From: Myxococcales bacterium
GTDB lineage: Bacteria; Myxococcota_A; UBA9042; JABWCM01; BTVJ01
NCBI GenBank assembly: GCA_045863395.1
Contig: BTVJ01000138.1
Span: 1-13,133 of the forward strand
Direction of reading: 5' to 3'
DNA: 13,133 nt
Below the pieces are notes generated by a model. That model did no database searches, was not told the origin of the DNA, and saw only the letters and a program-made list of their open reading frames with translations. Shown one piece after another: positions 1-13,133 of this stretch (the stretch's first letter is position 1; each line of letters opens with the position of its first letter). Both the position numbers and the translations under genes were made by a program.

Positions 1-234
1 GCCTCCTGCTCCGCCGCGAGCGCCGCCTCCGCCGCGCCCCGCGCCTCCTGCTCCGCCGCGAGCGCCGCCTCCGCCGCGCCCCGCGCCTCCTGCTCCGCCG
101 CGAGCGCCGCCTCCGCCGCGCCCCGCGCCTCCTGCTCCGCCGCGAGCGCCGCCTCCGCCGCGCCCCGCGCCTCCTGCTCCGTCGCGAGCGCCGCCTCCGC
201 CGCGCCCCGCGCCTCCTGCTCCGTCGCGAGCGCC
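1..234. repeat. 42-bp coding tandem repeat, about 5.6 copies visible, truncated by the window start
   Basis: Unit GCCTCCTGCTCCG(C/T)CGCGAGCGCCGCCTCCGCCGCGCCCCGC starts at 1, 43, 85, 127, 169 and 211 (partial). It encodes (EQEARGAAEAALA[A/T])n on the minus strand, i.e. two heptads per unit. Confidence 0.97.
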
Positions 235-1478
235 TCCTCGGCAACCGCCAGCGAGGCACGCTGACCAGCCAGGGCGGCCGCGGCCTCCGCAACCTCGTGC
301 TGGAGCGCCTCGCACGCAGCACCGGAGGTAGCGCGTGCCTCCTGCTCCTCGCGCAGCGCCGTCCGCGCCTGCTCGAGGCTCCCCGAGATCTCCTCGGCTG
401 CGGTGGTCGCCGCGTCCCGTGCGGCACGCACCTGAGCCAGGGTTGAAGCCAGCTCCTCGGAGCGCGCAACGGCCGCGTCGCGCTCGTCGAGAGCCCGCGC
501 CGCGTCTGCCTCGACCTCGGCGAGACGCCGCTGGAGGCCCTCGACGGCCTCGCTGATCGCCCCCGCGGCAGCCAGCTCCCGCTCGGCGGCGGTCCGTGCG
601 TCGCGAACCTCCTCCTGGGCCCGCCGAGCGTCGGCCTGGCCCAGCTCCACCGCCTGCTCCAGCTCGACCACGCGGGCGGCGATCGGCTCGACTCGCTCGA
701 GCTCCGCCGCAGCCCTCCGCGCGATCTCCTCCGCCGCCTGGCGCCGCTGCGCTTCGGCTTGGAGCCGCTCCTCCGCCTGCGCGAGCTGACCCTCCCGAGC
801 CTCCGCGAGCGCCTGGAGCCGCGCGGCCTCGCCCCTGAGCCGCGCGCTCTCTCCCTGCAAGGTCTCGACGTGCCCCCGGAGATCCGCGATCTCCATGGAC
901 GCCTGCTCCAGATCGGCCTCCAGTGCGTGGCGCCGGCGGTCCTGGCCCTCCCCCTCCTCCTCTGGGGCCAAGGGGCTCGGGCGCGTCCTCCCGCCCTCCT
1001 GTTCCAGGAAGACGGACTCGTCGATCACCGTGAGCTCGAGCTCGACGGGCACCCCGTCCTCGTCGACGACCTCCAGATTGAGCTCCACGGGAACGGCGCG
1101 GCGCAGGATGGCCGTCGTCCCCACGAGCCGCGTCGCGATGGTCCTGAGGTCGTCGTCGTCCAGCGGCTTGAACAGGTATGCGTCCGCCTTGGTGGGGAGC
1201 CGCCTGTGCGCCTCGAAGGTCTCGGGGCGCGCCGACGCCGAGACGATGAGCAGCGGCTGCCCGGCGAGCTGCGGATCCTTCTTGAACGTCCGGCAGTGGA
1301 TGAACCCCTGCGGCACGTCCACGCACAGCACGACCAGGTCCGGCGCATTGGCCTGAGCCCAGGCGATGCCCGCCTCCCCGCTGTCCACCCGCTGGATGGT
1401 CGTCTGGTCCGGGTCCAGCAGGCGGCGAAGCTGGCGGTCGACGGACTCGTCGGTGTCGATGACAAGGATGGAGATCAT
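1..1478 (-). CDS. frzS: FrzS-like protein: N-terminal atypical (pseudo-)receiver domain plus long coiled coil; 3' end runs off the window
   Basis: Hand translation from ATG 1478: MISILVIDTDESVDRQLRRLLDPDQTTIQRVDSGEAGIAWAQANAPDLVVLCVDVPQGFIHCRTFKKDPQLAGQPLLIVSASARPETFEAHRRLPTKADAYLFKPLDDDDL..., then A/E/R/Q-rich heptads. Open for about 492 codons to the window edge, so it is missing from the ORF track. The receiver matches my recollection of M. xanthus FrzS (PDLVVLAVD...C..LKKD...F..HRKL...ADEY..KP). Orthology is not verified. Confidence 0.78.
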   Translation of the reverse strand, partial: MISILVIDTDESVDRQLRRLLDPDQTTIQRVDSGEAGIAWAQANAPDLVVLCVDVPQGFIHCRTFKKDPQLAGQPLLIVSASARPETFEAHRRLPTKADAYLFKPLDDDDLRTIATRLVGTTAILRRAVPVELNLEVVDEDGVPVELELTVIDESVFLEQEGGRTRPSPLAPEEEGEGQDRRRHALEADLEQASMEIADLRGHVETLQGESARLRGEAARLQALAEAREGQLAQAEERLQAEAQRRQAAEEIARRAAAELERVEPIAARVVELEQAVELGQADARRAQEEVRDARTAAERELAAAGAISEAVEGLQRRLAEVEADAARALDERDAAVARSEELASTLAQVRAARDAATTAAEEISGSLEQARTALREEQEARATSGAACEALQHEVAEAAAALAGQRASLAVAEEALATEQEARGAAEAALATEQEARGAAEAALAAEQEARGAAEAALAAEQEARGAAEAALAAEQEARGAAEAALAAEQE

Positions 1479-1569
1479 CTGGGTTGTCGCCCGGTGCCTT
1501 GCTGTGGGACAGCGGCGGCCCTGCCGGTCGGCGAGCCGCGGAGTCCTTCGTGCTCCCCCCGGACCGCGC

Positions 1570-1599
1570 ATCCTAGAAGCCACCCGGCGGATGTGTCAA
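1570..1599 (-). promoter_or_regulatory. Putative sigma70-type promoter of the frzS-like gene
   Basis: Minus strand reads TTGACA (1599-1594), 18-nt spacer, TAGGAT (1575-1570), about 90 bp upstream of ATG 1478. A perfect -35 box stands out in GC-rich DNA. Confidence 0.6.
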
Positions 1600-1861: not shown

Positions 1862-4800
1862 ATGGGTCGCGTGCTCCACCGTGTGCTCGCAGTTTGCGTT
1901 CTCGCCCTCACCGCCTGCGCCCAGGACCTGGGCGACATCGACCGGACCCAGGCGGGGCTCCTGCGCAAGACCCTCTTCGAGGGGGAGTGGCTCATGCGCC
2001 GGACCGTCATCGACGCCCCCTACGACACGGGGTGGACCTTCATCGGGGAGCAGGACGAGGCGGTGCGCATCCGGTGGGACATCCAGGCGGACAAGCTCGT
2101 GGCCTGGCGGGTGACGCCCCACGTGGACGGGACGGAGGACGCGGCCCCCGCAGGGGCCTGGCCCATCGAGGCCCACGTGGACGTCAAGCGCCAGTACAGC
2201 GAGGCGACCGGCGAGCAGTCCAACGTCATCGAGGAGAACACGAGCGACCGCCTGTGGTTCGAGCGCGAGTACATCCGCGTGGACTGGTCCAACAACCTGG
2301 TGCGCAGCTTCGCGTTCGTGGTGGACGGCCTGGCGCAGCAGCCGCTGTCCCACGCGCTGTGGGACCCGGCCGACCCGGATCGCTTCCTGGTCGGGGTGCG
2401 GACCTCGGAGGGCTGGACGGACACCCAGGACGACCGGGCCATCCGCGACCTGAAGGAGGCCCACTACATCGACTACGTGACCCGGGTGGCCGTGGAGCCG
2501 GACACGGTGGCCTTCGACGATGGGTACGGGGGCATCGTGGAGGAGCCGGCGTGCTGGTACTACCTGACCTACGACTGCGCGCCGGGAGTGGTGTCCGTGC
2601 GCAGCTCCTTCGTCCGCGTCGACGCGGTTGCCACGGGCTACGCCCCCCTGCCCTACCCGGACAACCGGGTGGCAAGAGATGGCGACGGCAAGCCCATCCG
2701 GGTGCGGTGGAACGAGGACGGCGACCTGGAGCGGGCCGCGACCGCGACGAAGGGGACCGGGGCTGCCTCGGCCACTACGCCGTCGAACCCCTACGCCGAG
2801 ACCGACACGTCGGTGGCGCGCATCCCGTACTTCGACAAGTTCGGCTACTTCCGCATCGAGCGGGGCGGCTACGATCCGCTCTACGGCGAGGTGGAGAGCA
2901 GCAAGACGTACCTGGCCACCCTCTGGAACATCTGGCAGCGCTCGCGCGGAGACGACGGGAGCGCCCTACCCTACCGAGAGCGCGGCTACCGGCCCATCAT
3001 CTATTACTTGTCGCCTGGCTTTCCCGAGCGTCTGCGGGATGCCGCCCAGCGGTCCGTCGACCAGTGGAACGAGGCGCTGCTGGCGACGGTGAAGGTGCTG
3101 GACCCGGATGGCGACCCGCCGAGGCTCTTCGAGCTGCGGGAGAACACCCGCACGGTGGATCCCGAGAGCGGGAAGGTCCTGACGCGCGGCGAGGTCATGG
3201 GCGACCTGCGGTACAGCCACCTCTGGCTCGTGGAGCAGCCGACGCGGGTGGGGCTTCTCGGCTACGGGCCCTCGGCGATCGACCCGCTGACCGGCGAGAT
3301 CCTCTCCGCGGACGCCTTCATCTATGGCGCGGCGGGCCTGGAGCTGGCGGCCCGCGGGCGGGACATGGTGGAGCTGATCAACGGGCGCCTGGACCCCCAG
3401 GAGCTGGCCCTTGGCGACGCGGTGGCGCAGGCGATCACCACCGGGGCGACCAAGGTGGTGCCGCAGAGCGCGGCCAAGGTGAAGGAGATCGCCAAGGCGC
3501 ACCGGGGCGCCGCGCCGACCGCGAACGCATCCGCCACCAAGGCGAAGGGGCCGCCCAAGGCCAAGACGGCCCCGAAGGCTGCGGCCAAGCTGGCCCGCCC
3601 GGCGGGCTGGGCGGACGCGCGCCTGGGCGTGGCGAAGGGCACGTCCCTGGAGGCGCTCCTGGCGTCGGACGCCCAGATCGTGGCTCTCAAGGGGGGCGGG
3701 ACCCCGAACCTCGCCCGCACGTCCCCCCTGCGCTGGGCGACCCCGGCCCACCGCCGCGCGGTCCGCGAGCGTATGCGTACACTGGCGAAGCGCACCATCA
3801 TGCTCGCCCCCCTGGTGGACGACGCCGTCGCGGGCCTCGCCATCGAGCTGAAGGACGAGGCGCCGGACAAGGTCGTCCTCCGATTGGAAGAAGCGATCAT
3901 GCGCTCGACCATGGAGCACGAGATCGGCCACACCCTGGGGCTGCGCCACAACTTCGAGGGGTCGACGGACGCCCTGAACTACCACGACGGCTACTGGGAC
4001 CTGCGCGGCGAGGACGGGGAGCCCCTCGACGAGCAGACCGACGCCCAGGTGAAGGGCCGCATGCGCGAGCTCCAGTACAGCTCCATCATGGACTACGCCG
4101 GGCGGTTCAACATGGACACGGCGGGCCTGGGGCGCTACGACCGGGCGGCCATCGCGTTCGGCTACGGGGGCCTGGTCGAGGTCTTCGAGCAGGCGCCGGA
4201 CGACCCGCTCCTGGAGCTGGTCGCCTTCGACGACGACACCTACGACCGGCCGTTCACGCTCGACGGCGTGCTCCGCGACCTGCGCCACTACACGCGGATC
4301 CCGTCGCTGCTGGGCGGCAAGGCCGGCATGCGCAAGCGGACGCTGGTCCCTTATACGGAGGACGTGGCCGCGCTCATGGGGCGCCCCGCAAAGGACGCCT
4401 ACGCCGCACAGCTCACGGGCGACGCCCCGTGGACCCGCTGGGAGGTCCCCTACCGCTTCTGCTCCGACGAGTACGAGGGCGCCACGGCCACCTGCCACGT
4501 CTACGACGCAGGCGCCGACGCGCACGAGATCGTCGCCGACGCCGTCGAGCGCTGGCGCGCGTGGTACTGGTTCTACGCCTTCCGCCGTGATCGCATCCTC
4601 TTCGACGAGTGGGACTACATGGACGTGATGTGGGGCCGCACCTACGGCCTCATCCAGCTCGTCTACCAGGGCTGGGTCTTCGACCAGTGGTTCAAGGCGG
4701 ACACCTGGGAATGGCTGCGCCAGGACCCCGACGGCTTCGGCATCGAGGACGCGCCGTGGGAGGAGGCCGCCGACGCGGGCCTCGCGGGCACGGCCGCGGC

Positions 4801-5719
4801 GCAGCAGGGCCTGCGGTTCCTCTTCGAGGTGCTCGCCACGCCGGAGCCCGGCGCCTACATCTGGGACCCGGAGGACGCCTACTCGTGGCAGTTCGACACC
4901 GCCCCCATGGACCGGTGCAAGGGCGAGCTCGCGTGGGAGTCGGAGGACTGGTGCGCGGACGCCAACGTCCCCCTGGGCACGGGGCGCTGGTTCCTGAGCC
5001 TCTATGATGTGGACAGCGGCTACGGCTTCTACGACCGCCTGAAGTGGGTGGGCAGCTTCTACGACAAGCTGCTCGCGCTGGAGGCCCTGACCAGCCCGGA
5101 CACGTACTTCCTGGGCATCGACACCTTCCAGTCGGCGGACGAGTGGGCCATCTCCATGAACCTGTCGTTCGGCGACGAGATCCGCCGCCTGCTCACGGGC
5201 ATCGCCGCCGACCGGTTCGACCTCTTCGCGGGCACCTTCGACAAGAAGGGCAACTGGGTCCCCCCCGACCCCTTCGGCCCCCCGGCCTCGACAAAGGGCC
5301 CGACGGGCGGCGCGGTGGACCCCCAGACCAGCTTCACGGTCCAGCTCTACGCGCTCTGGTACGGCATGGCCTGGCTCAACGCCAACTTCGACAACTCCTT
5401 CAACGACTTCGCCAAGATCTGGCTCGCGGGCTCGGGCGAGGCCATCGACGTGGACCCGGCGAAGACCGTTGCGTTCACGAACCCCTTCAACGGCCGCACC
5501 TACGTCACCCTGCGCCCGGATGCTGGCTCGCCACCAGGAGTCGGCGCGACCATGCTCGACGAGGCCCACCGCCTCCTTGGCCTCTACGACGAGGCCAAGG
5601 CCGACCCGGACGCGGACGCGGGCCTGCTCGACTACTACGCCTGGCGCGTACAGAACCTCATCGAGAACGTGGAGGTGGTGCGCGGGCTCCACGACCTGTA
5701 CGGGATGCTGGTGTTCTGA
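1862..5719 (+). CDS. Large lipoprotein zinc-dependent metalloprotease (metzincin clan), 1285 aa
   Basis: Lipobox LTA-C19 after a basic/hydrophobic signal; DPLTGEILSA motif; extended zinc motif HEIGHTLGLRH (3917-3949); Met-turn SSIMDY; RBS GAGGTG; near-total G/C third positions. Confidence 0.93.
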   Translation: MGRVLHRVLAVCVLALTACAQDLGDIDRTQAGLLRKTLFEGEWLMRRTVIDAPYDTGWTFIGEQDEAVRIRWDIQADKLVAWRVTPHVDGTEDAAPAGAWPIEAHVDVKRQYSEATGEQSNVIEENTSDRLWFEREYIRVDWSNNLVRSFAFVVDGLAQQPLSHALWDPADPDRFLVGVRTSEGWTDTQDDRAIRDLKEAHYIDYVTRVAVEPDTVAFDDGYGGIVEEPACWYYLTYDCAPGVVSVRSSFVRVDAVATGYAPLPYPDNRVARDGDGKPIRVRWNEDGDLERAATATKGTGAASATTPSNPYAETDTSVARIPYFDKFGYFRIERGGYDPLYGEVESSKTYLATLWNIWQRSRGDDGSALPYRERGYRPIIYYLSPGFPERLRDAAQRSVDQWNEALLATVKVLDPDGDPPRLFELRENTRTVDPESGKVLTRGEVMGDLRYSHLWLVEQPTRVGLLGYGPSAIDPLTGEILSADAFIYGAAGLELAARGRDMVELINGRLDPQELALGDAVAQAITTGATKVVPQSAAKVKEIAKAHRGAAPTANASATKAKGPPKAKTAPKAAAKLARPAGWADARLGVAKGTSLEALLASDAQIVALKGGGTPNLARTSPLRWATPAHRRAVRERMRTLAKRTIMLAPLVDDAVAGLAIELKDEAPDKVVLRLEEAIMRSTMEHEIGHTLGLRHNFEGSTDALNYHDGYWDLRGEDGEPLDEQTDAQVKGRMRELQYSSIMDYAGRFNMDTAGLGRYDRAAIAFGYGGLVEVFEQAPDDPLLELVAFDDDTYDRPFTLDGVLRDLRHYTRIPSLLGGKAGMRKRTLVPYTEDVAALMGRPAKDAYAAQLTGDAPWTRWEVPYRFCSDEYEGATATCHVYDAGADAHEIVADAVERWRAWYWFYAFRRDRILFDEWDYMDVMWGRTYGLIQLVYQGWVFDQWFKADTWEWLRQDPDGFGIEDAPWEEAADAGLAGTAAAQQGLRFLFEVLATPEPGAYIWDPEDAYSWQFDTAPMDRCKGELAWESEDWCADANVPLGTGRWFLSLYDVDSGYGFYDRLKWVGSFYDKLLALEALTSPDTYFLGIDTFQSADEWAISMNLSFGDEIRRLLTGIAADRFDLFAGTFDKKGNWVPPDPFGPPASTKGPTGGAVDPQTSFTVQLYALWYGMAWLNANFDNSFNDFAKIWLAGSGEAIDVDPAKTVAFTNPFNGRTYVTLRPDAGSPPGVGATMLDEAHRLLGLYDEAKADPDADAGLLDYYAWRVQNLIENVEVVRGLHDLYGMLVF

Positions 5720-5783: not shown

Positions 5784-5798
5784 TTCACCGGAGGGACC

Positions 5799-6899
5799 AT
5801 GTCGCCGTTCGGACGCCGAGCCAACGGAGCGCGCCGCGAGCGCCTCCTCGCCTCTCCCCGCTTCGCCGGCGGGGTGTTCCACAACACCAACGGCGCGCGC
5901 CCGGGGCTAAAGCCTGGATCGGCCGGGGCGCTGGCCGGGGAGTACTTCCGCGGCGGGAGGCGCCGGGTGCCCGTCGCGCCGCTGCCCGCGGAGAGCCCGC
6001 TCGATGTGTGGCGGCGCCCCCCGGAGACCGGCCTCCGCACCACCTGGCTCGGGCACTCGACGCTGCTCCTCGAGATCGACGGAGCCCGCGTGCTGACCGA
6101 CCCGGTGTGGGGAGAGCGGGTGTCGCCGACGCGCATGGCGGGGCCCAAGCGGTTCCAGCCGGTGCCTGTGCCAGTCAGCGGGCTCCCGCCCCTGGACGCC
6201 GTCGTGATCTCCCACGACCACTACGACCACCTGGACGCGCCCACGATTAGGGCGCTGGCCCTGACGGACGTGCCCTTCATCACGTCGCTGGGCGTGGGCG
6301 TGCACCTGGAGGCGTGGGGGGTGCCGCCCGAGCGCATCACGGAGCTCGACTGGTGGGAGCAGGTGGAGGTCGGCGCCCTCACGATCACGGCGGCACCGTC
6401 CCAGCACTTCTCGGGGCGCGCGCTGGGGGACCGCAACCGGACCCTGTGGTCGTCCTTCGCCCTGCGGGGACCCCGGCACGGGGTCTTCTTCAGCGGCGAC
6501 ACGGGCCTCACGCCCGAGTACGGTGACATCGCTTCACGGCTCGGCCCCTTCGACCTCGTGATGCTGGAGGTGGGCGCGTTCCACCCCGCCTGGGGCCACA
6601 TCCACCTCGGGCCCGACAACGCGCTGGAGGCGCTGGCGCTCCTCGGCGGTGGGAGCTTCCTGCCGATCCACTGGGGGACGTTCTCTTTGGCGCTCCACGA
6701 CTGGGACGAGCCCGCAGAGCGGCTGCTGGAGGTGGCCCCGACCCGAGGCGTGCACCTGGTGATGCCGCGGCTCGGCGACCCGGTGGAGCCGGACCGCGCC
6801 GTCCTCACTCCCTGGTGGCGCGAGGTGACGGCGCTGGAGGTGTCGCGCCCAGTGGACTCCGAGGAGCCTCCCGTCCTCTTGGGCGACCCCGTGGACTGA
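5799..6899 (+). CDS. MBL-fold metallo-hydrolase (NAPE-PLD/RomA-like subgroup), 366 aa
   Basis: Motifs TWLGHS, TDPVW, SHDHYDHLD (HxHxDH), PSQHFSGR, FSGDTG and PIHWGTF. Start reassigned from 5469 to ATG 5799 (GGAGGG just upstream; removes the overlap with the protease). Confidence 0.92.
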   Translation: MSPFGRRANGARRERLLASPRFAGGVFHNTNGARPGLKPGSAGALAGEYFRGGRRRVPVAPLPAESPLDVWRRPPETGLRTTWLGHSTLLLEIDGARVLTDPVWGERVSPTRMAGPKRFQPVPVPVSGLPPLDAVVISHDHYDHLDAPTIRALALTDVPFITSLGVGVHLEAWGVPPERITELDWWEQVEVGALTITAAPSQHFSGRALGDRNRTLWSSFALRGPRHGVFFSGDTGLTPEYGDIASRLGPFDLVMLEVGAFHPAWGHIHLGPDNALEALALLGGGSFLPIHWGTFSLALHDWDEPAERLLEVAPTRGVHLVMPRLGDPVEPDRAVLTPWWREVTALEVSRPVDSEEPPVLLGDPVD

Positions 6900-6986
6900 C
6901 GCGCCGCGGCGTGTGCCTCCACTCGGGCGCCGCCCCGGAACAACGCCGCACATGCAAGCGTTGGCCACCCACACACGGAGGACGAA

Positions 6987-7946
6987 ATGGACGAGATCAC
7001 GAGGCGCGACGCGATGATCAAGGCGGCCGGGGTGGTGGCGGGAATCGCGGGAGCGGCGGTCGTGGGCGCCGCGGTGATGCCGGGCGCCGAGGCTGGGTCG
7101 GGAGCCAAGGCGGCCGCAGGTGAGCCCGGTCGGAACGAGCTCCTCACCGCGAAGGCAATGCCCACCGTCTACCTCCCCCACGGTGGAGGCCCGTGGCCCT
7201 TTGTAGACCTCGGCTTCGACCGCGCCGAGCTCGACCACCTGGCGACGTGGCTGAGGGCACTCCCGACGCTTCCTGCGACACCACCACGGGCCGTGCTCGT
7301 GATCTCCGCCCACTGGGAGGAGTCGGCCCCCACCGTGATGACCTCCGCGCGGCCGCCGATGCTCTACGACTACTATGGCTTCCCACCCGCATCCTATGAG
7401 ATCACCTGGCCGGCTCCGGGCGATCCGGCCCTGGCGGCCCGGGTGCGCGAGCTGCTGAACGCCGCGGGCTTCTCCACGGCGGAGGACGCCCACCGCGGCT
7501 TCGACCACGGCACCTTCGTGCCGCTCAAGCTGGCGTGGCCGGCTGCGGACATCCCCACCGTGCAGCTCTCGCTCAAGCGCGGGCTGGACCCGGCAGAGCA
7601 CCTCGCCATGGGGAGGGCGCTGGCGCCGCTGCGCAGCGAGGGCGTCTACCTGGTGGGCAGCGGCATGTCCTACCACAACATGCGCGGCTTCGGGAGCGCC
7701 GCTGGCCGGGCGGTCGCCGACGCCTTCGACGCGTGGCTCCAGGAGACGGCAGCCCTCCCCGCCGCCGAGCGCGACGCTCGGCTGGTCGCGTGGGCCCAGG
7801 CCCCGAGCGCCCGCCTGGCGCACCCGCGCGAGGAGCACCTCCTGCCGCTCATGGTCGTCGCGGGGGCGGCCGGCGCCGACCTGGGCACGACGGCGTGGTC
7901 GGGCAACGTGCTCGGCGTCCGGGTCTCGGGCGTGCGGTTCGGGTAG
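6987..7946 (+). CDS. Class III extradiol ring-cleavage dioxygenase (LigB/DODA/YgiD-like) with a Tat-like N-terminal extension
   Basis: Motifs LPHGGGP, VISAHWE, YDYYGFP, RGFDHGTFVPL, VQLSL, GSGMSYHN and AHPREEHLLPL. RBS GGAGGA precedes ATG 6987. The catalytic domain begins at Met58 (ATG 7158), which is an alternative start. Confidence 0.92.
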   Translation: MDEITRRDAMIKAAGVVAGIAGAAVVGAAVMPGAEAGSGAKAAAGEPGRNELLTAKAMPTVYLPHGGGPWPFVDLGFDRAELDHLATWLRALPTLPATPPRAVLVISAHWEESAPTVMTSARPPMLYDYYGFPPASYEITWPAPGDPALAARVRELLNAAGFSTAEDAHRGFDHGTFVPLKLAWPAADIPTVQLSLKRGLDPAEHLAMGRALAPLRSEGVYLVGSGMSYHNMRGFGSAAGRAVADAFDAWLQETAALPAAERDARLVAWAQAPSARLAHPREEHLLPLMVVAGAAGADLGTTAWSGNVLGVRVSGVRFG

Positions 7947-7959
7947 CCAAAGACCGCTT

Positions 7960-7992
7960 CAGCGCAATGGCGCTGCTGCCGTCGCAAGGCAG
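7960..7992. terminator. Two small adjacent hairpins between convergent genes
   Basis: CAGCGC-aatg-GCGCTG (7960-7975) and CTGCC-gtcgcaa-GGCAG (7976-7992) in the 57-bp convergent gap; short stems and no U-tract. Confidence 0.2.
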
Positions 7993-8003
7993 GCACGTGC
8001 GCG

Positions 8004-8768
8004 TCAACCCCGGCGCGCCAGGTAACCCAACTCTGTGTGACGGCCGGTGGTCTCGCCTCGCAGGTGGGCCGCGACCCCGACGAAGGGCGACCGCCAAGAC
8101 TGCACCACCGTCCAGCCGCGAAGCAGGCACTCCAGGTCGGAGGCCGTGAGCGATTGCGGGTGGCCGGCGTTGCGAGAGCCCCCAGTGGCGTCCGCGACTT
8201 CGCATGTGAGGACGAGCCAGCCGCCCGGACACAATACGCGGTGCACCTCCCGCAGGGCGGTGGCCGGGTCATTGAAGTGGTCCAGGGCATTCGAGCACAC
8301 GACGACGTCGAAGGTGGCCTCACCGAAGGGGAGTGCCTCGGCGGCGGCTGCCAGCATGACAACTCCGGGAGGAGGTGGCAGAAGGGCGGCATACTCCCTC
8401 GCCAGGTGGTCCAAGCCGACACGGGTCCCCGGGAGCGTCGCCAGGACTGTGGCCAGGCCGCATCCCACGTCGAGCACCCGCGTGTCGCCACGAAACCCGA
8501 TGGCCGCCCGGATTCGGTCCAGGCACCTGTAACGAACCCAGTAGGACTCGACGGCCTGTCGCCTGCCCACCGCCCGAAGCAGGGGAGCGAGGTTCGTAGA
8601 CTGCCAGTCGAGGGTCCAAGCCTGGTGCTCTGTGAGCCCGTGCAAGGAGGCAGCGCGGTCATCGGCCGAGGCCCTCCGGTTGGGCGACAGCTCGTTGGGG
8701 GTTGCCCCGTCGCTGGACCGATCAGATTGGCTTGTGCTCACTCTCAGGGTCTCCATCCAGACCACCAC
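8004..8768 (-). CDS. Class I SAM-dependent methyltransferase (Methyltransf_11-like)
   Basis: VLDVGCG motif I, AEALPF..ATFDVVVCSNALDHF, and ALREVHRVLCPGGWL. Start uncertain (GTG 8768, ATG 8756 or GTG 8741). Confidence 0.9.
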   Translation of the reverse strand: MVVWMETLRVSTSQSDRSSDGATPNELSPNRRASADDRAASLHGLTEHQAWTLDWQSTNLAPLLRAVGRRQAVESYWVRYRCLDRIRAAIGFRGDTRVLDVGCGLATVLATLPGTRVGLDHLAREYAALLPPPPGVVMLAAAAEALPFGEATFDVVVCSNALDHFNDPATALREVHRVLCPGGWLVLTCEVADATGGSRNAGHPQSLTASDLECLLRGWTVVQSWRSPFVGVAAHLRGETTGRHTELGYLARRG

Positions 8769-8775
8769 GGTGCTC

Positions 8776-9291
8776 TCATCTCCCCGGAGCGGTCTTTCCG
8801 ATGAGCTGTTCGACCTCCGGCATGTCTATGCATTGCACGCCTGGCTGACCGACCCACGAGTCAAAGCGGTCATACCATCTCTCGGCATACATGTAGTCGT
8901 CATACTGCCTTGAGCTCCCGGCGCCGACCGGACGCCGGTAAAGCTGCCGGAGCCACCTGCTCCGCTCCGGGCGAAGGAGCAGCACCGCCTCGCCGTCCAG
9001 CACCGGGAGCAGCACCTCCTCCGGAACGAGGCCCGCCACGACGAGGAGGGGCGGCAGGCCGGCGTTCTCCTCGTGGAGTTCGAGCCTGCGGATCACCTCC
9101 ACCAGCCGACCGTTCGCGTCGAGGATGCCCTTGCGAATCGGGATCGGATCCACGAGCGGACCCAGCATGTCCGTCAGCTCTACGACACGGTCGAACGTGC
9201 CCTGTCGGCTCGCCAGCGTACTCTTTCCGGCACCAGGCGGGCCGACGAGCCACGTCAGGCGCGCACATAGGGGTAGCGTCCAAGACTCCAT
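8776..9291 (-). CDS. Small P-loop NTPase, NMP/small-molecule kinase-like, 171 aa
   Basis: Walker A GPPGAGKST near the N-terminus and an RxxxR lid-like RQLYRR. Strong RBS AGGAGGT before ATG 9291; the ORF-track start at 9507 lies inside the upstream gene. Confidence 0.8.
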   Translation of the reverse strand: MESWTLPLCARLTWLVGPPGAGKSTLASRQGTFDRVVELTDMLGPLVDPIPIRKGILDANGRLVEVIRRLELHEENAGLPPLLVVAGLVPEEVLLPVLDGEAVLLLRPERSRWLRQLYRRPVGAGSSRQYDDYMYAERWYDRFDSWVGQPGVQCIDMPEVEQLIGKTAPGR

Positions 9292-10046
9292 GCTGACACC
9301 TCCTGACCTTCCTGAGTCTGCGAGAGGATCGGGTGCCGTGGCGCCGCCTCCCGGCACCACCGTGCGTCGGACGACACCCAGGACACCGCCAGCGCTCTGC
9401 GCGGGCGTTGTGTGGCGTTTCGACCGGACCGGTGCCAGCACGCAGAGTGGAACAGGAGCGCGTCGCCCGCCTCCAGTCGCGGCACGATGCCGGCAGGAGG
9501 CTGCCATGCGGCACCAGGGCTACCCGGCTGCGCCAGCCCCGTGTGGAGGTCGATGGACGCCCCCTTGGGACCGAGGTGAGACCCCGGCGCCACCTCGACG
9601 CCGCCATTCGACTGATCAACTGCGTCGAGAGCGAGCCAACAGACGGCCCCAGCCTCGGCCACGATGGGCCAGAACGCCCTGTCCTGGTGCCAACGAAACG
9701 GCTCGTGGCGGTCCGTCTTGCGCAGCAGGAAGTCCTGAAAGGGCACCACCGCCGTGCCCAGGGCCGTGGCCACCGCTTCACCCATGCTCATCAGAAGGCT
9801 GTGGACCGCGCCGGCCTCGTGGTGCCCCAGCGCGCCCATCCATTGGTCCATCAGGCGATCAAGGCCAGGCTGATCGGGGGGAGCTGGGGAGTGGGTATAG
9901 AGGATGCGGGCAGATCGCGGCGCGCCGCCGGCGTCCAGACGGTCCATGAGACCCAGCAGGCCACGCACATGGCCGGGTGTGACGAGACTCCGAACGACGC
10001 AGTAGCCGTCGGCCGCCCACGCGAGGGGATCAGGATACACGCTCAA
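9255..10046 (-). CDS. Phytanoyl-CoA dioxygenase (PhyH) family Fe(II)/2-oxoglutarate oxygenase, about 263 aa
   Basis: DGYCVVR, WHQD (HxD), CWLALD...NGG..V.PGSH, L.AGDALLFH..CWHRSG.N and RRAL. Probable start is TTG 10046 (GAGGAG 7 nt upstream) or GTG 10040. Confidence 0.92.
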   Translation of the reverse strand: MSVYPDPLAWAADGYCVVRSLVTPGHVRGLLGLMDRLDAGGAPRSARILYTHSPAPPDQPGLDRLMDQWMGALGHHEAGAVHSLLMSMGEAVATALGTAVVPFQDFLLRKTDRHEPFRWHQDRAFWPIVAEAGAVCWLALDAVDQSNGGVEVAPGSHLGPKGASIDLHTGLAQPGSPGAAWQPPAGIVPRLEAGDALLFHSACWHRSGRNATQRPRRALAVSWVSSDARWCREAAPRHPILSQTQEGQEVSAWSLGRYPYVRA

Positions 10047-11589
10047 GCAGCGACTCCTCGATGTAGATTGCCTTGATGCCCAGCCGGTCCGCCACGGCGA
10101 GCGCCTCCTCAGGCCGATGGGCGATGGGTTCGCCACTGCCGTTGAGGGACGTGTTGATGACTACCGGTGGGTGACCGCGAGCCTCGAGCAGGTCCAGGAT
10201 CTGCCAGAGCCCCGACCCATCCTGCTCCGTAACTGTCTGAATCCTGGTCGTACCGTCCACGTGCAGAGCGGAGGGAATGAGCGCGGCTTTGGCCTGCCGT
10301 ACTTGAGCGATCCTCAACATGTAAGGCGACGGGCCATCAAGGTCGAACCACGCGCTGGCTACCTCAGCCTTGACTGCGCAGCCGAAGGGTCTGAACGGCT
10401 CTCGATGCTTGATGGAGACATTCAGATGATCCCGCATCCCTGGCGGCGTCGGAGACGCGAGGATACTCCGGTGGCCCAGCGCTCGCGGACCGGCCTCGTC
10501 GCAGCCTCGGTACACGGCAACCACTTCGCTCGCCAGAAGCCGGTCCACGAGCCTCCGCAGCCCAAGCGGTCGGACCGCCCAGCCGTCCGCTGGGAGCACG
10601 GGCGCGGCCGGAAGCCCCAAATACGGACTGAACGACCCAGCGGAGGCGAGCACAGGAAACCCAATCTGCGCGCTCACGACAGCGGCAGCGCAAATCGCGA
10701 GCCCCCGGTCGTCGGTGAACGGGGGGACCGACAGCTCGTCCACGACGCCTCGCTCGATCAGGGCTTGGTTGGCGAGGCCGTTGAGGGCCACGCCGCCCGA
10801 GAGGCACACGCGCCTCAAGGCGCTCGCTCTGACGCCTGCGCCCACGACGTGCTGAACAATGACCTCGGTGAGGCGCTGGATGGACGAGGCGGCCCCGGGG
10901 TGCAGGGTGCCCGCCGACGTTCCGAGCTGTTCCTCGAGCCACGCGACGATGCGGGGCACCTGCCGAAATGTGTCGGGGTGTAGCTGCCGTGGGCACAGTT
11001 CGAAGGCTCCGCCCGGCAGGAGCTTCACATGGGGCTCGAACAGGCCCAGCGGTTCGCCATAGGCGGCCAGGGCCATGACCTTGCCCGCGGAGTGGTGCCC
11101 GGAGAGACCGCAGTACTCGCCCACCCCCCACCAGAGGCGTCCCAGCGAGTGGGCGGATGGCACGCGGACGAGAGAAGAGGAGAGCCCCTCCCGTCTCGCG
11201 ACCGCTGCCATGGTGCTGGTGCCGTCTCCCTTTCCGTCGATGCTCACACACAGCGCCTCCTCCCACGGCGACGCGACCATGGCGGCCATCAGGTGGCAAT
11301 CGTGGTGAAGCACCGTCAAGATTGGCGCCGTGGCGCCAAACCGGCGCCTGAGCAGAGGCTCGAGCCAACCTCGTCGCTCGGCCCAGAACGAGCGGTCTGC
11401 CACTGCGATGACATCGACTCGTCGGACGTCAAGCGCGTCCAGAAGCGCGATGATGGTCCGCTCGTCGATCAGACCGACGTTCTTCTCGCGGGTGACTCGC
11501 TCGGCCTCCAGGTTGACCTGGATGGTCCCCCGGTCGAGGACCGCGGCGGCGCCGTTGTGGTCCAGCCCACCCAGACCGAGAACCCTCAT
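10030..11589 (-). CDS. O-carbamoyltransferase, NodU/CmcH/TobZ family, 519 aa
   Basis: ERVTREK, HHDCH, IDGKGD, GKVMALAAYG, LSGGVALN, GPRALGHRSILA, KHREPFRPF, HVDGTTRIQTV and NTSLN..GEPI. ATG 11589 overlaps the upstream stop (ATGA). Confidence 0.95.
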   Translation of the reverse strand: MRVLGLGGLDHNGAAAVLDRGTIQVNLEAERVTREKNVGLIDERTIIALLDALDVRRVDVIAVADRSFWAERRGWLEPLLRRRFGATAPILTVLHHDCHLMAAMVASPWEEALCVSIDGKGDGTSTMAAVARREGLSSSLVRVPSAHSLGRLWWGVGEYCGLSGHHSAGKVMALAAYGEPLGLFEPHVKLLPGGAFELCPRQLHPDTFRQVPRIVAWLEEQLGTSAGTLHPGAASSIQRLTEVIVQHVVGAGVRASALRRVCLSGGVALNGLANQALIERGVVDELSVPPFTDDRGLAICAAAVVSAQIGFPVLASAGSFSPYLGLPAAPVLPADGWAVRPLGLRRLVDRLLASEVVAVYRGCDEAGPRALGHRSILASPTPPGMRDHLNVSIKHREPFRPFGCAVKAEVASAWFDLDGPSPYMLRIAQVRQAKAALIPSALHVDGTTRIQTVTEQDGSGLWQILDLLEARGHPPVVINTSLNGSGEPIAHRPEEALAVADRLGIKAIYIEESLLERVS

Positions 11590-12485
11590 GGCGTCAGCTC
11601 CCCCCGCGCACCGAGGGCGGGGTGTGGGATCGGACCAGCACCGCGGCAGAAGAGCCTCGGGAGCTGGAGGCGTGAGACTCCCGCGGTGACCGGGCCGGGC
11701 TCGACTGTGCATGCGGCGGCGAATCCAGCCTGGGCGACGCGCTGCACGACCCGCTGGTCCCACGCCCCGTCGGGGTAGGCGAACAGGGCCGCACCGTCCC
11801 CACCGGTGTCGTCCAGCAGGCTGCGCGACGCGGCAAGCTCGGCGCCAAGCGCGTGCTCGTCGCAGTCTGTGAGCCTCTCGTGCACTGCGCCGTGCCCCCC
11901 GATTGCCCATCCCCGCGAGACGAGCAGGCGCAGGTCCCCCAGACCGACGTAGGGGACGGCGCCCTCCGCAACCCCGGCCAGGTGCGCAAGGGCGCGGAGC
12001 CGGTCGCGGCGCTCATCGGCGGCGAGGGCGGCAAGCCAGCGCCTTGGTGCCCCGAACGCCCACCCGCGCAGATCGTCGGCGAGCGGCCCTCCCCATGCCT
12101 GGATCCGTGCGCGCCAGGCCGGCAATTCGCGCCCCACCGCCACGCAGGCGTACCAGGCGTCGAACCACAACGGCTCGCGCGTGAAGACGGGGGCCGCGGG
12201 TACAAAGCAGGTCCCGACGACCCCAAGGCTGCGACACATCGTCGCCACCACGCCCGCAACCTCGGCATATCCGTCGTCGAACGTCAGCGCGACCCGCGAG
12301 CGGCCGATCCGACTCGGTGCAGCCAGAAGCTCGTGGAGTCCGACAATCAAATAGCGCTCCGCGATCCAAGCAAGCTGCAACGCAAACGCGTCCGGGGTGA
12401 CTGCGGTCCCGCGCTCAAACCAGCACTCCGTGGCTGGCTCGCGCCGGCAGACCCTGTGGTACATGAGGACCCAGTCGTTCGTCAT
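11586..12485 (-). CDS. Polysaccharide deacetylase (CE4/NodB homology), 299 aa, no signal peptide
   Basis: VLMYHRV, ALTFDDGY, IGGHGAVH (HxxxH), FAYPDG and LPRL. ATG 12485 overlaps the upstream stop (ATGA); the ORF-track start at 12926 lies inside the upstream gene. Confidence 0.92.
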   Translation of the reverse strand: MTNDWVLMYHRVCRREPATECWFERGTAVTPDAFALQLAWIAERYLIVGLHELLAAPSRIGRSRVALTFDDGYAEVAGVVATMCRSLGVVGTCFVPAAPVFTREPLWFDAWYACVAVGRELPAWRARIQAWGGPLADDLRGWAFGAPRRWLAALAADERRDRLRALAHLAGVAEGAVPYVGLGDLRLLVSRGWAIGGHGAVHERLTDCDEHALGAELAASRSLLDDTGGDGAALFAYPDGAWDQRVVQRVAQAGFAAACTVEPGPVTAGVSRLQLPRLFCRGAGPIPHPALGARGELTP

Positions 12486-13133
12486 GGTGCCCACGCTCCC
12501 AACGCCTCCTCGATGGGCAGCCCCCCGAGACCCAGGTCGTCGTGGAGGCACCTGGCAAGTCCCCCCATCTCCACGGTCGTCCGCTCGAAGGAGGCCCCAC
12601 GATACCGGGTCAGCACGTTGTCGCGAAGAGTGACCATGACCTGCTCTCCGACACGCACTGCCCGCAGTCCCGTGACGAATGGGCCATACCCCGGCTCCGC
12701 GTGGTGCCGCTCGATGGTCACCGCGAAGTCCTGCCACCTCCGAGGCGTGGCTGAGGCCTCGTAAACGCGACGAGGGTCGGGCTGGTCGGGCGACGTCCGC
12801 CATATGGCGACTCCGTCTCCCGTCGGGCGGGAGATCACGGTCCAGCCGAGGTGCTCCTGGCGGTGCTCTGCTTCCGCCGGAAACGGCCGCAGGTATGGTT
12901 GCCCGTTGCCGACATCGCAGAACCAAGCGCGGTCCCCGATCTCGACGCGCACCAGAAGGTGGTCGTCCGGGTGGCTTACACAGGCGCCGCAGAGGTGAGC
13001 CCGATACCCGAGAGAGCGCAAGAGGGCCAGAAAACTCACGCTATGGACGTGGCACGGGCCGCCGAGGCCGTCGATGCACAGGGCAATCGCATCAAAAGCA
13101 TCATGATATCCGGGCCTATGGTGCGAGTGCGTG
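12482..13133 (-). CDS. Arylamine N-acetyltransferase (NAT)/amide synthase family protein, 5'-truncated
   Basis: The frame stays open past the ORF-track start to the window edge: ...CIDGLGGPCHVHSVSFLALLRSLGY...DHLLVRV....WFCDVGNGQP. This supplies the Cys-His-Asp triad (Cys codon 13052-13054). Confidence 0.88.
   Translation of the reverse strand, partial: THSHHRPGYHDAFDAIALCIDGLGGPCHVHSVSFLALLRSLGYRAHLCGACVSHPDDHLLVRVEIGDRAWFCDVGNGQPYLRPFPAEAEHRQEHLGWTVISRPTGDGVAIWRTSPDQPDPRRVYEASATPRRWQDFAVTIERHHAEPGYGPFVTGLRAVRVGEQVMVTLRDNVLTRYRGASFERTTVEMGGLARCLHDDLGLGGLPIEEALGAWAP

Follow-up and report, generated by a model that had tools for sequence, protein, structure and literature searches.

A conserved, apparently acquired myxobacterial gene cassette that may build a heavily decorated sugar or nucleoside metabolite

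In aminoglycoside pathways a glycosyltransferase acts and de-N-acetylation follows, in blasticidin S and mildiomycin biosynthesis a nucleotide hydrolase (BlsM, MilB) is paired with a base glycosyltransferase (BlsD, MilC), and the streptothricin pathway employs a glycosyltransferase, a deacetylase and a carbamoyltransferase. A similar logic may underlie a cassette of about eleven genes whose downstream half lies in the window analysed here, a stretch of 13,133 nucleotides from a Myxococcales bacterium. Like tobramycin- and kanamycin-type clusters, the cassette has a TobZ-type carbamoyltransferase (E 7e-53 against TobZ) and a PhyH oxygenase weakly similar to KanJ. Unlike them, it has neither the sugar-phosphate cyclase nor the aminotransferase that mark the 2-deoxystreptamine type among the annotated genes of five bounded loci (L025, L030, L031, L023 and L022), and it adds a CE4 deacetylase, a GT-A protein of no named family, a SLOG protein, a propeller, an M20 hydrolase, an arylamine-N-acetyltransferase-family acyltransferase (NAT) and an NMP-type kinase. 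The proposed sequence of freeing a base, glycosylating, deacetylating, acylating and carbamoylating would resemble blasticidin S, mildiomycin and streptothricin biosynthesis; base release would here fall instead to a SLOG4/LOG fold, and NRPS and aminotransferase genes are lacking.

Rhizobial Nod-factor genes share the CE4, carbamoyltransferase and methyltransferase families with the cassette (NodB, NodU and NodS, respectively), but scores fall far below the specific cutoffs (138 bits against 1000 for NodU, 23 against 240 for NodB) and NodA or NodC is annotated in no locus. The original prediction recognised the combination from no characterised cluster, and a literature search likewise yielded no paper describing it, nor anything on DUF6271 or DUF4915/TIGR03032; the Aravind-group surveys of SLOG classification and DNA-base modification, which could describe such neighbourhoods, lay outside that search.

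On the minus strand of the window, six coupled open reading frames (Table 1) are transcribed in the order NAT, CE4 deacetylase, carbamoyltransferase, PhyH oxygenase (PhyH1), P-loop kinase and methyltransferase. ATGA overlaps join NAT to CE4 (12482-12485) and CE4 to the carbamoyltransferase (11586-11589), the next two joints overlap by 17 bp (carbamoyltransferase/PhyH1) and 37 bp (PhyH1/kinase), and a gap of 7-19 bp precedes the methyltransferase. The P-loop protein is the exception among six in falling short of the Pfam gathering score. This order, with its overlaps and family motifs, is as originally predicted, and the claim that the five complete genes lack an evident signal peptide is consistent with a crude hydropathy scan (not a real signal-peptide predictor) that finds no strongly hydrophobic N-terminus in them; the six genes do not, however, form the whole unit that they were taken to be, being the downstream half of the larger cassette. 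Third-position GC content is 0.77-0.82 in the six genes and 0.91-0.96 in the four left-hand genes of the window, and only 2 of 48 control genes (median 0.92) lie at or below 0.83; by composition the block therefore looks acquired. A promoter and terminator scan of 7800-9000 gave nothing useful. Contigs of the RNA-labelled run X6 span the cassette, which is no proof of transcription.

Table 1. Positions and family assignments of the block genes and of the element end in the window.
Feature	Position	Strand	Basis
Arylamine-N-acetyltransferase-family acyltransferase (NAT), 3' ~198 codons	12482..13078	-	PF00797, 59 bits
CE4/NodB-type deacetylase, 299 aa	11586..12485	-	PF01522, 54 bits
TobZ/CmcH/NodU-type carbamoyltransferase, 519 aa	10030..11589	-	PF16861, 173 bits; PF02543, 97 bits
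PhyH-family Fe/2-oxoglutarate oxygenase (PhyH1), 263 aa, TTG start	9255..10046	-	PF05721, 90 bits
Small-molecule P-loop kinase, 171 aa	8776..9291	-	Walker A and predicted kinase fold; Pfam hits sub-threshold only
Class I SAM methyltransferase, 250-254 aa, start 8756 or 8768	8004..8768	-	PF08241, 65 bits
End of inserted element	13079..13133	.	Identical to last 55 nt of contig C72, same outward orientation

The NAT retains its Cys-His-Asp triad (C27, H58 and D73 in the numbering of the 216-aa frame), the CE4 metal and catalytic motifs (D70-D71, H198-x3-H202) are preserved across 12 homologs, and PhyH1 keeps H120-x-D122, H205 and the 2-oxoglutarate-binding R216 across 38. The carbamoyltransferase scores above cutoff for both a Kae1-like N-terminal and a YrdC-like C-terminal domain. 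The nearest solved relatives of PhyH1 are MysH, SnoN and SnoK, those of the PhyH proteins also include the natural-product enzymes EvdO2 and KanJ, and structure matches for the PhyH, NAT and M20 proteins are all weak (E 1e-7 to 1e-13), leaving their substrates unfixed by this comparison. The kinase model (pLDDT 89) adopts a gluconate/polynucleotide/shikimate kinase fold (Z 11.2, rmsd 3.7, 144 aligned), the top Z values being tied and a chloramphenicol-phosphotransferase-like fold scoring Z 9.4. PAPS-synthesis genes lie nearby in two loci, but a sulfotransferase identity for the kinase is less likely, with no sulfotransferase among the 50 fold matches listed for it. The kinase has 149 homologs, the 120 listed (self excluded) sharing 53-75% identity with it, and its Walker A glycines and lysine are invariant.

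The kinase is the best marker of the cassette, and PhyH1 lies immediately upstream of it in 39 of the 41 loci with room. Co-occurrence was counted in those kinase-anchored loci that reach 10 kb (21 in number), many loci being cut by contig ends: PhyH1 recurs in 19, NAT in 16, SLOG and the propeller in 15 each, CE4, M20 and a second oxygenase (PhyH2) in 14 each, and the carbamoyltransferase and the GT-A protein in 11 each. The original prediction was to fall if its genes never occurred together in other genomes; they do co-occur in many, and each of the nine other core genes recurs in 11-19 of the 21 loci. Three further GT-A genes are barely below threshold or barely outside the locus (L031, L040 and L020), and in all five genomes examined whose kinase locus lacks this gene it lies elsewhere, adjoining more cassette genes in the four stretches that were annotated. 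The genes recur in shuffled blocks among loci, and six kinds of fusion are seen (NAT-GT, NAT-PhyH2, SLOG-CE4, PhyH1-kinase, kinase-methyltransferase and kinase-M20). L022 has the identical tail order (CE4, carbamoyltransferase, PhyH1, kinase, methyltransferase), and L025 holds all eleven genes with unrelated flanks on either side and no additional genes inside. Variable members are the carbamoyltransferase, which is optional, the methyltransferase, an NAD epimerase (8 loci only) and a sigma54 activator. The methyltransferase of the window is lineage-specific and not conserved with the cassette: it is found in none of 46 loci, a search of five cassette-bearing genomes gave two partial generic matches, both in one genome, and a different family closes other cassettes (L018, L022, L025) or is fused to the kinase (P0304).

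The cassette occurs mainly in myxobacteria, with other lineages also represented, and its cultured carriers include Polyangium sp. 6x1 and Enhygromyxa salina SWB007. It is uncommon, with 2 carriers among 401 genomes of the phylum, and its genomic contexts are unrelated; the kinase was not found among 60 related genomes, and no homologs were matched in viral contigs, phages or plasmids. An exporter is restricted to the L033/L051 lineage. NRPS genes about 1 kb from the Polyangium sp. 6x1 cassette are convergent with it and absent at other loci, and were taken as unrelated.

The upstream end of the block is interrupted in this strain. The window is the whole of its contig, and contig C72 is the sole contig with a matching end, which holds five front-half genes encoding the GT-A glycosyltransferase, SLOG4, the TIGR03032-like propeller, the M20 hydrolase and PhyH2. 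This end most likely represents the missing front half, given that PhyH2 in C72 and NAT in the window both run into the same inserted sequence. That 13079-13133 is itself NAT sequence was ruled out, as other runs continue differently (contigs of X6 and X3 diverge from the window at 13079) and the same 55-mer truncates PhyH2. A 1308-nt contig of run X1 begins with the element sequence, whose first 19 nt are shared with one of the two inverted arms around C152:559-985; the element is probably mobile, its terminal motif may be ISAs1-like, and blastn against plasmids returned chance matches only. A single insertion joining C72 straight to the window was also ruled out (a target duplication is absent from the flanks, and the interrupted genes differ), and we infer that the two contigs are neighbours, with about 0.95 kb and a pair of element copies in inverted orientation between them; no contig bridges this junction, and the middle piece is not in the assembly. 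The insertion cuts off the first ~80 codons of NAT, which are missing from the assembly; only residues 80-283 of a full-length NAT homolog find a match in G000, and the frame, ending at the element at 13079, is not intact in the strain. Degeneration had been named as evidence against the system: the five complete genes retain the motifs of their families, but NAT and PhyH2 are interrupted, so that this objection holds in part for the local copy. The pathway in this strain is probably inactive or truncated, and this copy, probably broken, is a poor choice for experiments. A scaffold enzyme had been expected upstream of 13133, and more of the system does lie there; it consists only of the GT-A, SLOG, propeller, M20 and PhyH2 proteins, with no classical scaffold enzyme.

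The GT-A protein belongs to no Pfam family. Its model (pLDDT 90) has a GT-A fold with Z 16-18 to GT2 and GT75 enzymes, the two classes matching within about 2 Z units, and the nucleoside glycosyltransferase AvpGT is among the matches (Z 17.5). The top Foldseek match, aligned over almost the entire chain, is the GT75 mutase MtdL, which with Hyg20 represents the A201A and hygromycin A pathways (PMC9937993). By spacing rather than residue-level superposition, DDD115-117, R301-x-x-D304 and H327 line up in order with MtdL D109-111, R257/D260 and the Mn-binding H287. Unlike the A201A and hygromycin A enzymes, however, the cassette protein (14-16% identity, TM 0.32/0.40) has Ile or Ala at the position of MtdL Asp87, and GT2 enzymes score equally; its invariant R256 may or may not correspond to the MtdL nucleophile R159. 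No RGP/GT75 Pfam match was obtained, up to E 2, for the homologs that were scanned, a profile search against the PDB gave no real match, and one homolog has a weak match to a TET-associated glycosyltransferase (E 0.016). The family comprises 763 clusters at 50% identity, and elsewhere its domain is fused to GT2, kinase-like, methyltransferase and CE4 domains in proteins of 1200-1950 aa.

The SLOG protein (PF18306, SLOG cluster 4; 120 bits) resembles LOG phosphoribohydrolases and Moco carriers in keeping R95/E118 with the 23-residue spacing of the catalytic R99/E122 given for CgLOG in PMC8234997, and an xGGxGTxxE motif, a (P/G)GGxGTxxE variant with Ser first; it differs from them in sitting in a tailoring cassette, sometimes fused to CE4. 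The Arg/Glu pair and the motif also occur in 6y01 and hence do not discriminate, and the uncharacterised 1rcu and 6y01 and the Moco carrier protein 2iz5 are closer solved relatives than LOG enzymes, so that the protein may only bind nucleotide. The propeller is TIGR03032/DUF4915-like with conserved His and Asp residues.

It is possible, with a probability of roughly one half, that the cassette is a mobile cluster whose roughly eleven cytoplasmic enzymes build a single small sugar or nucleoside metabolite with heavy decoration. PKS, NRPS, sugar cyclase and aminotransferase genes are all missing from the bounded cassettes, so the GT2/GT75-like glycosyltransferase and SLOG likely make the scaffold together; the content of L025 implies that the scaffold enzyme is among the eleven genes or comes from central metabolism. 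In the proposed route SLOG would act on a nucleoside monophosphate as LOG enzymes do, releasing its base, the GT-A enzyme would couple an NDP-N-acetyl-sugar or rearrange it into the scaffold, CE4, M20 or both would expose an amine for NAT to re-acylate, the two PhyH enzymes would oxidize, and the kinase would phosphorylate the PhyH1 product, with carbamoyl and methyl groups as strain-specific decorations. Sequential action of all these enzymes on one substrate is what we infer. The low-GC loci L058 and L061 and the fusion P0203 carry GTP cyclohydrolase II and NADAR, described as a ribosyl N-glycosidase in PMC9503650; the pair would be another route from ribotide to free base and may support the base-release logic. 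The natural-product relatives of PhyH (SnoK/SnoN, EvdO2, KanJ, MysH) likewise point towards a metabolite. On the other side, the closest solved SLOG relatives may argue against LOG-type chemistry, fusions of the GT domain to GT2 domains would suit glycan loci, and the lack of aminotransferase and cyclase, with few epimerases and a rare exporter, would be odd for a secreted antibiotic.

The cassette could alternatively serve a surface polysaccharide or glycoconjugate by tailoring its NDP-sugar or glycan precursor, with the GT-A protein as a GT75-like NDP-sugar mutase or GT2-like transferase and the remaining enzymes adding acyl, carbamoyl, phosphate and methyl groups. The MtdL match with its aligned motifs, the large GT fusions, the PAPS-synthesis genes after the kinase in L023 and L026, and the wide occurrence of carbamoyltransferases in relatives (59 of 61 genomes; generic, 29-43% identity) all fit. 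However, no flippase, polymerase, priming transferase or other glycosyltransferase is annotated in or beside bounded Myxococcota cassettes, the rarity and unrelated contexts speak against it, and SLOG, M20 and arylamine NAT are unusual among glycan enzymes; this account is improbable.

More doubtful again is a role in phage defence or biological conflict, in which the cassette would produce or process a modified nucleotide or alter bases in nucleic acid. Of 22 distinct loci, 4 have specific defence genes within or adjacent to them (PDC-S68 in L022, Wadjet in L025, a PD-T4-4-like ATPase in L032 and BrxA in L071), with weaker WYL and PbeA-like matches at two more and none in 16 control windows of G000, but this amounts to weak enrichment (Fisher p=0.12, falling to 0.03 once the two weak cases are counted), the controls are contig interiors of one genome, and such islands gather mobile cargo of every sort. 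A sigma54 activator embedded in four loci has RtcR_PspF2 as its best match, though only over the AAA part and with no CARF hit in the N-terminal part. The TET-associated match and the absence of an exporter from most cassettes would also suit defence; against it, PADLOC 2.0 matched none of ten core proteins and hit the methyltransferase only generically, no nuclease or effector is among the cassette genes, no homologs were matched in viral contigs, phages or plasmids, and PhyH enzymes are known to act on small molecules. Comparably speculative is a novel class without a recognised scaffold enzyme, in which a SLOG N-glycosidase and the GT-A family would assemble an artificial nucleoside, nine further enzymes would decorate it, and the product would be kept in the cell as an anti-phage or signalling agent; this would explain the BREX, Wadjet and other defence neighbours, the RtcR-like activator and the missing exporter. 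Least probable is a detoxification module inactivating or degrading an incoming compound by acetylation, phosphorylation, glycosylation, hydrolysis and oxidation: the NAT, chloramphenicol-phosphotransferase-like kinase (Z 9.4), GT (AvpGT, Z 17.5) and amidohydrolase families include inactivating enzymes, but a single synthetic route better accounts for eleven coupled genes, their many fusions and the presence of a carbamoyltransferase, no uptake system is present, and comparable resistance genes are usually solitary.

Lacking a PKS, NRPS, terpene or RiPP core, the cassette would probably be missed by rule-based cluster mining, even though myxobacteria conserve it gene for gene and other lineages have it too. 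Since carrier strains are in culture, its product can be sought directly. The cassette also provides a first pathway context for three unassigned families: the GT-A protein, the P-loop kinase and the TIGR03032/DUF4915-like propeller.

The six open reading frames of the window cassette half, their overlaps and their family assignments are all as in the original prediction by ORF and family-profile checks. The NAT-family acyltransferase carries its Cys-His-Asp motif, the CE4 deacetylase its DD and HxxxH motifs, the carbamoyltransferase the motifs of both its domains and the PhyH oxygenase (PhyH1) its HxD/H/R motif, and the methyltransferase scores above the PF08241 cutoff. The 171-aa P-loop protein reaches the cutoff of no Pfam family; it has 149 homologs and an invariant Walker A motif, and a confident model has the gluconate/polynucleotide/shikimate kinase fold. 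Third-position GC (GC3) of the six-gene block is 0.77–0.82 against a control median of 0.92, and the block was therefore probably acquired.

A scaffold gene had been expected upstream. Five more cassette genes most likely lie there, at the end of contig C72 (see table), but none encodes a classical scaffold enzyme: bounded cassettes contain no PKS, NRPS, cyclase or aminotransferase, and the scaffold gene is therefore not of a classical kind. That the five genes belong with those of the window is shown by other genomes; their GC3 (0.75–0.82) is equally low, and the second PhyH gene, PhyH2, is interrupted by the element that also cuts NAT.

Cassette front half and features in or beside cassette loci (L, homologous loci; C, source-genome contigs)
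Feature	Location	Strand	Description
Front half	C72:31632-36276 (= L001:11633-16277; genes also given as 31632-36221)	+	Five coupled genes: 490-aa GT-A protein (GT), SLOG cluster 4, DUF4915-like propeller, M20 hydrolase, PhyH2
Inverted-end sequence	C152:559-985		~427 bp between inverted ends, which share 13–19 nt with the window's element end
Receiver protein	window 1-1583	-	Response-regulator receiver, long coiled coil, near-tandem 14-residue repeats; runs past contig end
Metalloprotease	window 1862-5719	+	1285 aa, zincin type, apparent lipoprotein signal, DUF4953/M43 matches; distant paralog on C5
Two convergent genes	window 5793-7946	+	Metallo-beta-lactamase-fold hydrolase and LigB/DOPA-dioxygenase-like protein (Tat-like N-terminus); convergent on cassette, host-like GC3
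Added genes, low-GC cassettes	L058:2944-5363, L061:1905-4168		GTP cyclohydrolase II–NADAR fusion, asparagine-synthase-like amidotransferase, second NAT; GT has extra GT2 and kinase-like domains
Sigma54 activator	L022:5412-6704, L026:1206-2657, L056:6145-7296, L057:1511-3031		Between propeller and CE4; AAA part matches RtcR_PspF2 best; N-terminal domain without usable Pfam match (three copies scanned)
B12-dependent radical SAM gene	L032:10547-12433		Right behind kinase, one cassette
Unannotated ~390-aa gene	L060:4874-6037, L063:6915-8378		Between M20 and PhyH1, two low-GC loci
NRPS and two ABC transporter-like genes	L074:2-16600		Polyangium sp. 6x1; ~150 bp to 7.5 kb from cassette GT, convergent to cassette; not seen at other loci

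The window is contig C138 in full, and its last 55 bases are identical to those of C72 in the same outward direction, so that the two contigs end within one shared repeat. The first 19 bases of this 55-mer match one arm of the inverted pair around C152:559-985, a stretch that is possibly a non-autonomous relative, and a 1308-nt contig of sequencing run X1, possibly the source run, begins with the 55-mer. In run X6, from another study, one contig tracks the window up to 13079 and continues into 651 nt of other sequence, and another tracks C72 to the base preceding the 55-mer before 180 nt of different sequence; contigs of runs X3 and X10 likewise diverge from the reference at these points. Because the X6 continuations are, on manual reading, in frame and similar to NAT and PhyH homologs, we conclude that the element interrupts NAT and PhyH2 in the source strain and is absent from these junctions in other strains. 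PhyH2 residues ~148–381 and NAT residues 1–~80 (~0.95 kb between the junctions) are absent from the assembly, whose shortest contig is 2.6 kb.

A kinase-profile search gave 19 genome and 31 metagenome loci, and removal of four Walker-A-only matches left 46 (38 distinct at 90% identity). Among the 21 loci spanning 10 kb or more, which include two near-duplicates, the kinase co-occurs with PhyH1 in 19, NAT in 16, SLOG and the propeller in 15 each, CE4, M20 and PhyH2 in 14 each, carbamoyltransferase and GT in 11 each, and the window methyltransferase in none. Of 41 loci with enough sequence there, 39 have PhyH1 immediately 5' of the kinase. All eleven genes form a single run in L025, flanked by a Wadjet operon and unrelated genes, and the tail of L022 (CE4, carbamoyltransferase, PhyH1, kinase, methyltransferase) repeats the window order. 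The methyltransferase of other cassettes is of a different family (48% to the fusion protein P0304, against 31% over 136 residues for the window enzyme), and the carbamoyltransferase is absent from four cassettes (L023, L030, L031, L032) and truncated in L019. Genes are also fused: NAT–GT (L022, L033, L034, L057 and Beggiatoaceae proteins), NAT–PhyH2 and SLOG–CE4 (both in L031 and L040), PhyH1–kinase, kinase–methyltransferase and kinase–M20. Among named hosts Myxococcota predominate, the exceptions being one Planctomycetota and a Pseudomonadota-labelled MAG; low-GC contigs occur too. The cassette is rare (2/401 phylum genomes counting the source genome; 1/61 relatives, the source genome only) and was not found in the viral contigs, phages or plasmids searched.

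The 490-aa GT has no Pfam match, and its model (pLDDT 90) is a GT-A fold. Foldseek ranked the GT75 mutase MtdL first, VIA-align placed the GT2 enzymes RmlT (Z 18.2), WrtF (17.9) and AvpGT (17.5) slightly over MtdL (Z 16.5, rmsd 3.7, 274 aligned), and Atlas also gave GT2-like folds and a link to DUF6271. Its conserved DDD115-117, R301-x-x-D304 and H327 follow the residue order reported for MtdL, but the reported Asp87 is not retained (PMC9937993). The family comprises 763 clusters at 50% identity, and many of 40 length-selected members are fused to GT2, kinase-like, methyltransferase, CE4, His-phosphatase or GTP cyclohydrolase II (with or without NADAR) domains. Giant fusions of 1150–1950 aa around the same GT domain (P0172, P0182, P0238, P0279, P0214, P0203), laid out as GT2, GT, kinase-like, methyltransferase and then GT2, CE4 or phosphatase, are a distinct second version of the system.

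At least 95% of 19 homologs of SLOG keep R95 and E118, which lie 23 residues apart as described for R99/E122 of CgLOG (PMC8234997); its nearest relatives of solved structure include 1rcu and 6y01 as well as a Moco carrier protein. LOG-clade SLOGs and NADARs are both described as cleaving ribosyl N-glycosidic bonds (PMC9503650), and GTP cyclohydrolase II–NADAR genes adjoin GT in two loci (L058, L061). The propeller resembles TIGR03032/DUF4915 proteins and, given its conserved His/Asp residues, may be a metal enzyme.

Going by family knowledge for each chemical step, we favour a single cytoplasmic pathway for the cassette and folds observed here, with a small sugar or nucleoside compound as its product, and give it a probability of about 0.5. 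SLOG would release a base and GT would form the scaffold from an NDP-sugar; CE4 and M20 would deacetylate or cleave an amide, NAT would re-acylate, and two oxidations and a phosphorylation coupled to PhyH1 would be joined by optional carbamoyl and methyl groups. Against this route, SLOG may be a binder, the modeled GT could be either GT2-like or GT75-like, and an exporter occurs only in one lineage (L033/L051). Tailoring of a glycan precursor is a tentative alternative that we think unlikely.

A nucleotide-based defence or base-modification system seems more doubtful still. Specific PADLOC matches (E <1e-20, generic kinase, cyclase and ABC matches excluded on both sides) adjoin or sit inside 4/22 distinct loci with scanned neighbours, a set without the L058 and L061 neighbours, against 0/16 control windows of 8 kb in the source genome (92 proteins; one genome, contig interiors). 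Fisher p is 0.12, or 0.03 with WYL and a partial PbeA match included, and the association is suggestive only. In the source genome the neighbours are ordinary (LigB-type dioxygenase, metallo-beta-lactamase fold and zincin beside the window half; an NAD epimerase on C72). Detoxification is improbable.

Single families are known. The six-family combination had gone unrecognised in the original prediction, and the gene set was likewise not found in the literature searched. In its workings the cassette resembles aminoglycoside and nucleoside-antibiotic clusters, but it does not pass the scaffold test for them. It represents a pathway that can be tested, has probably stayed hidden and includes three unassigned families; the copy in the source strain is interrupted.
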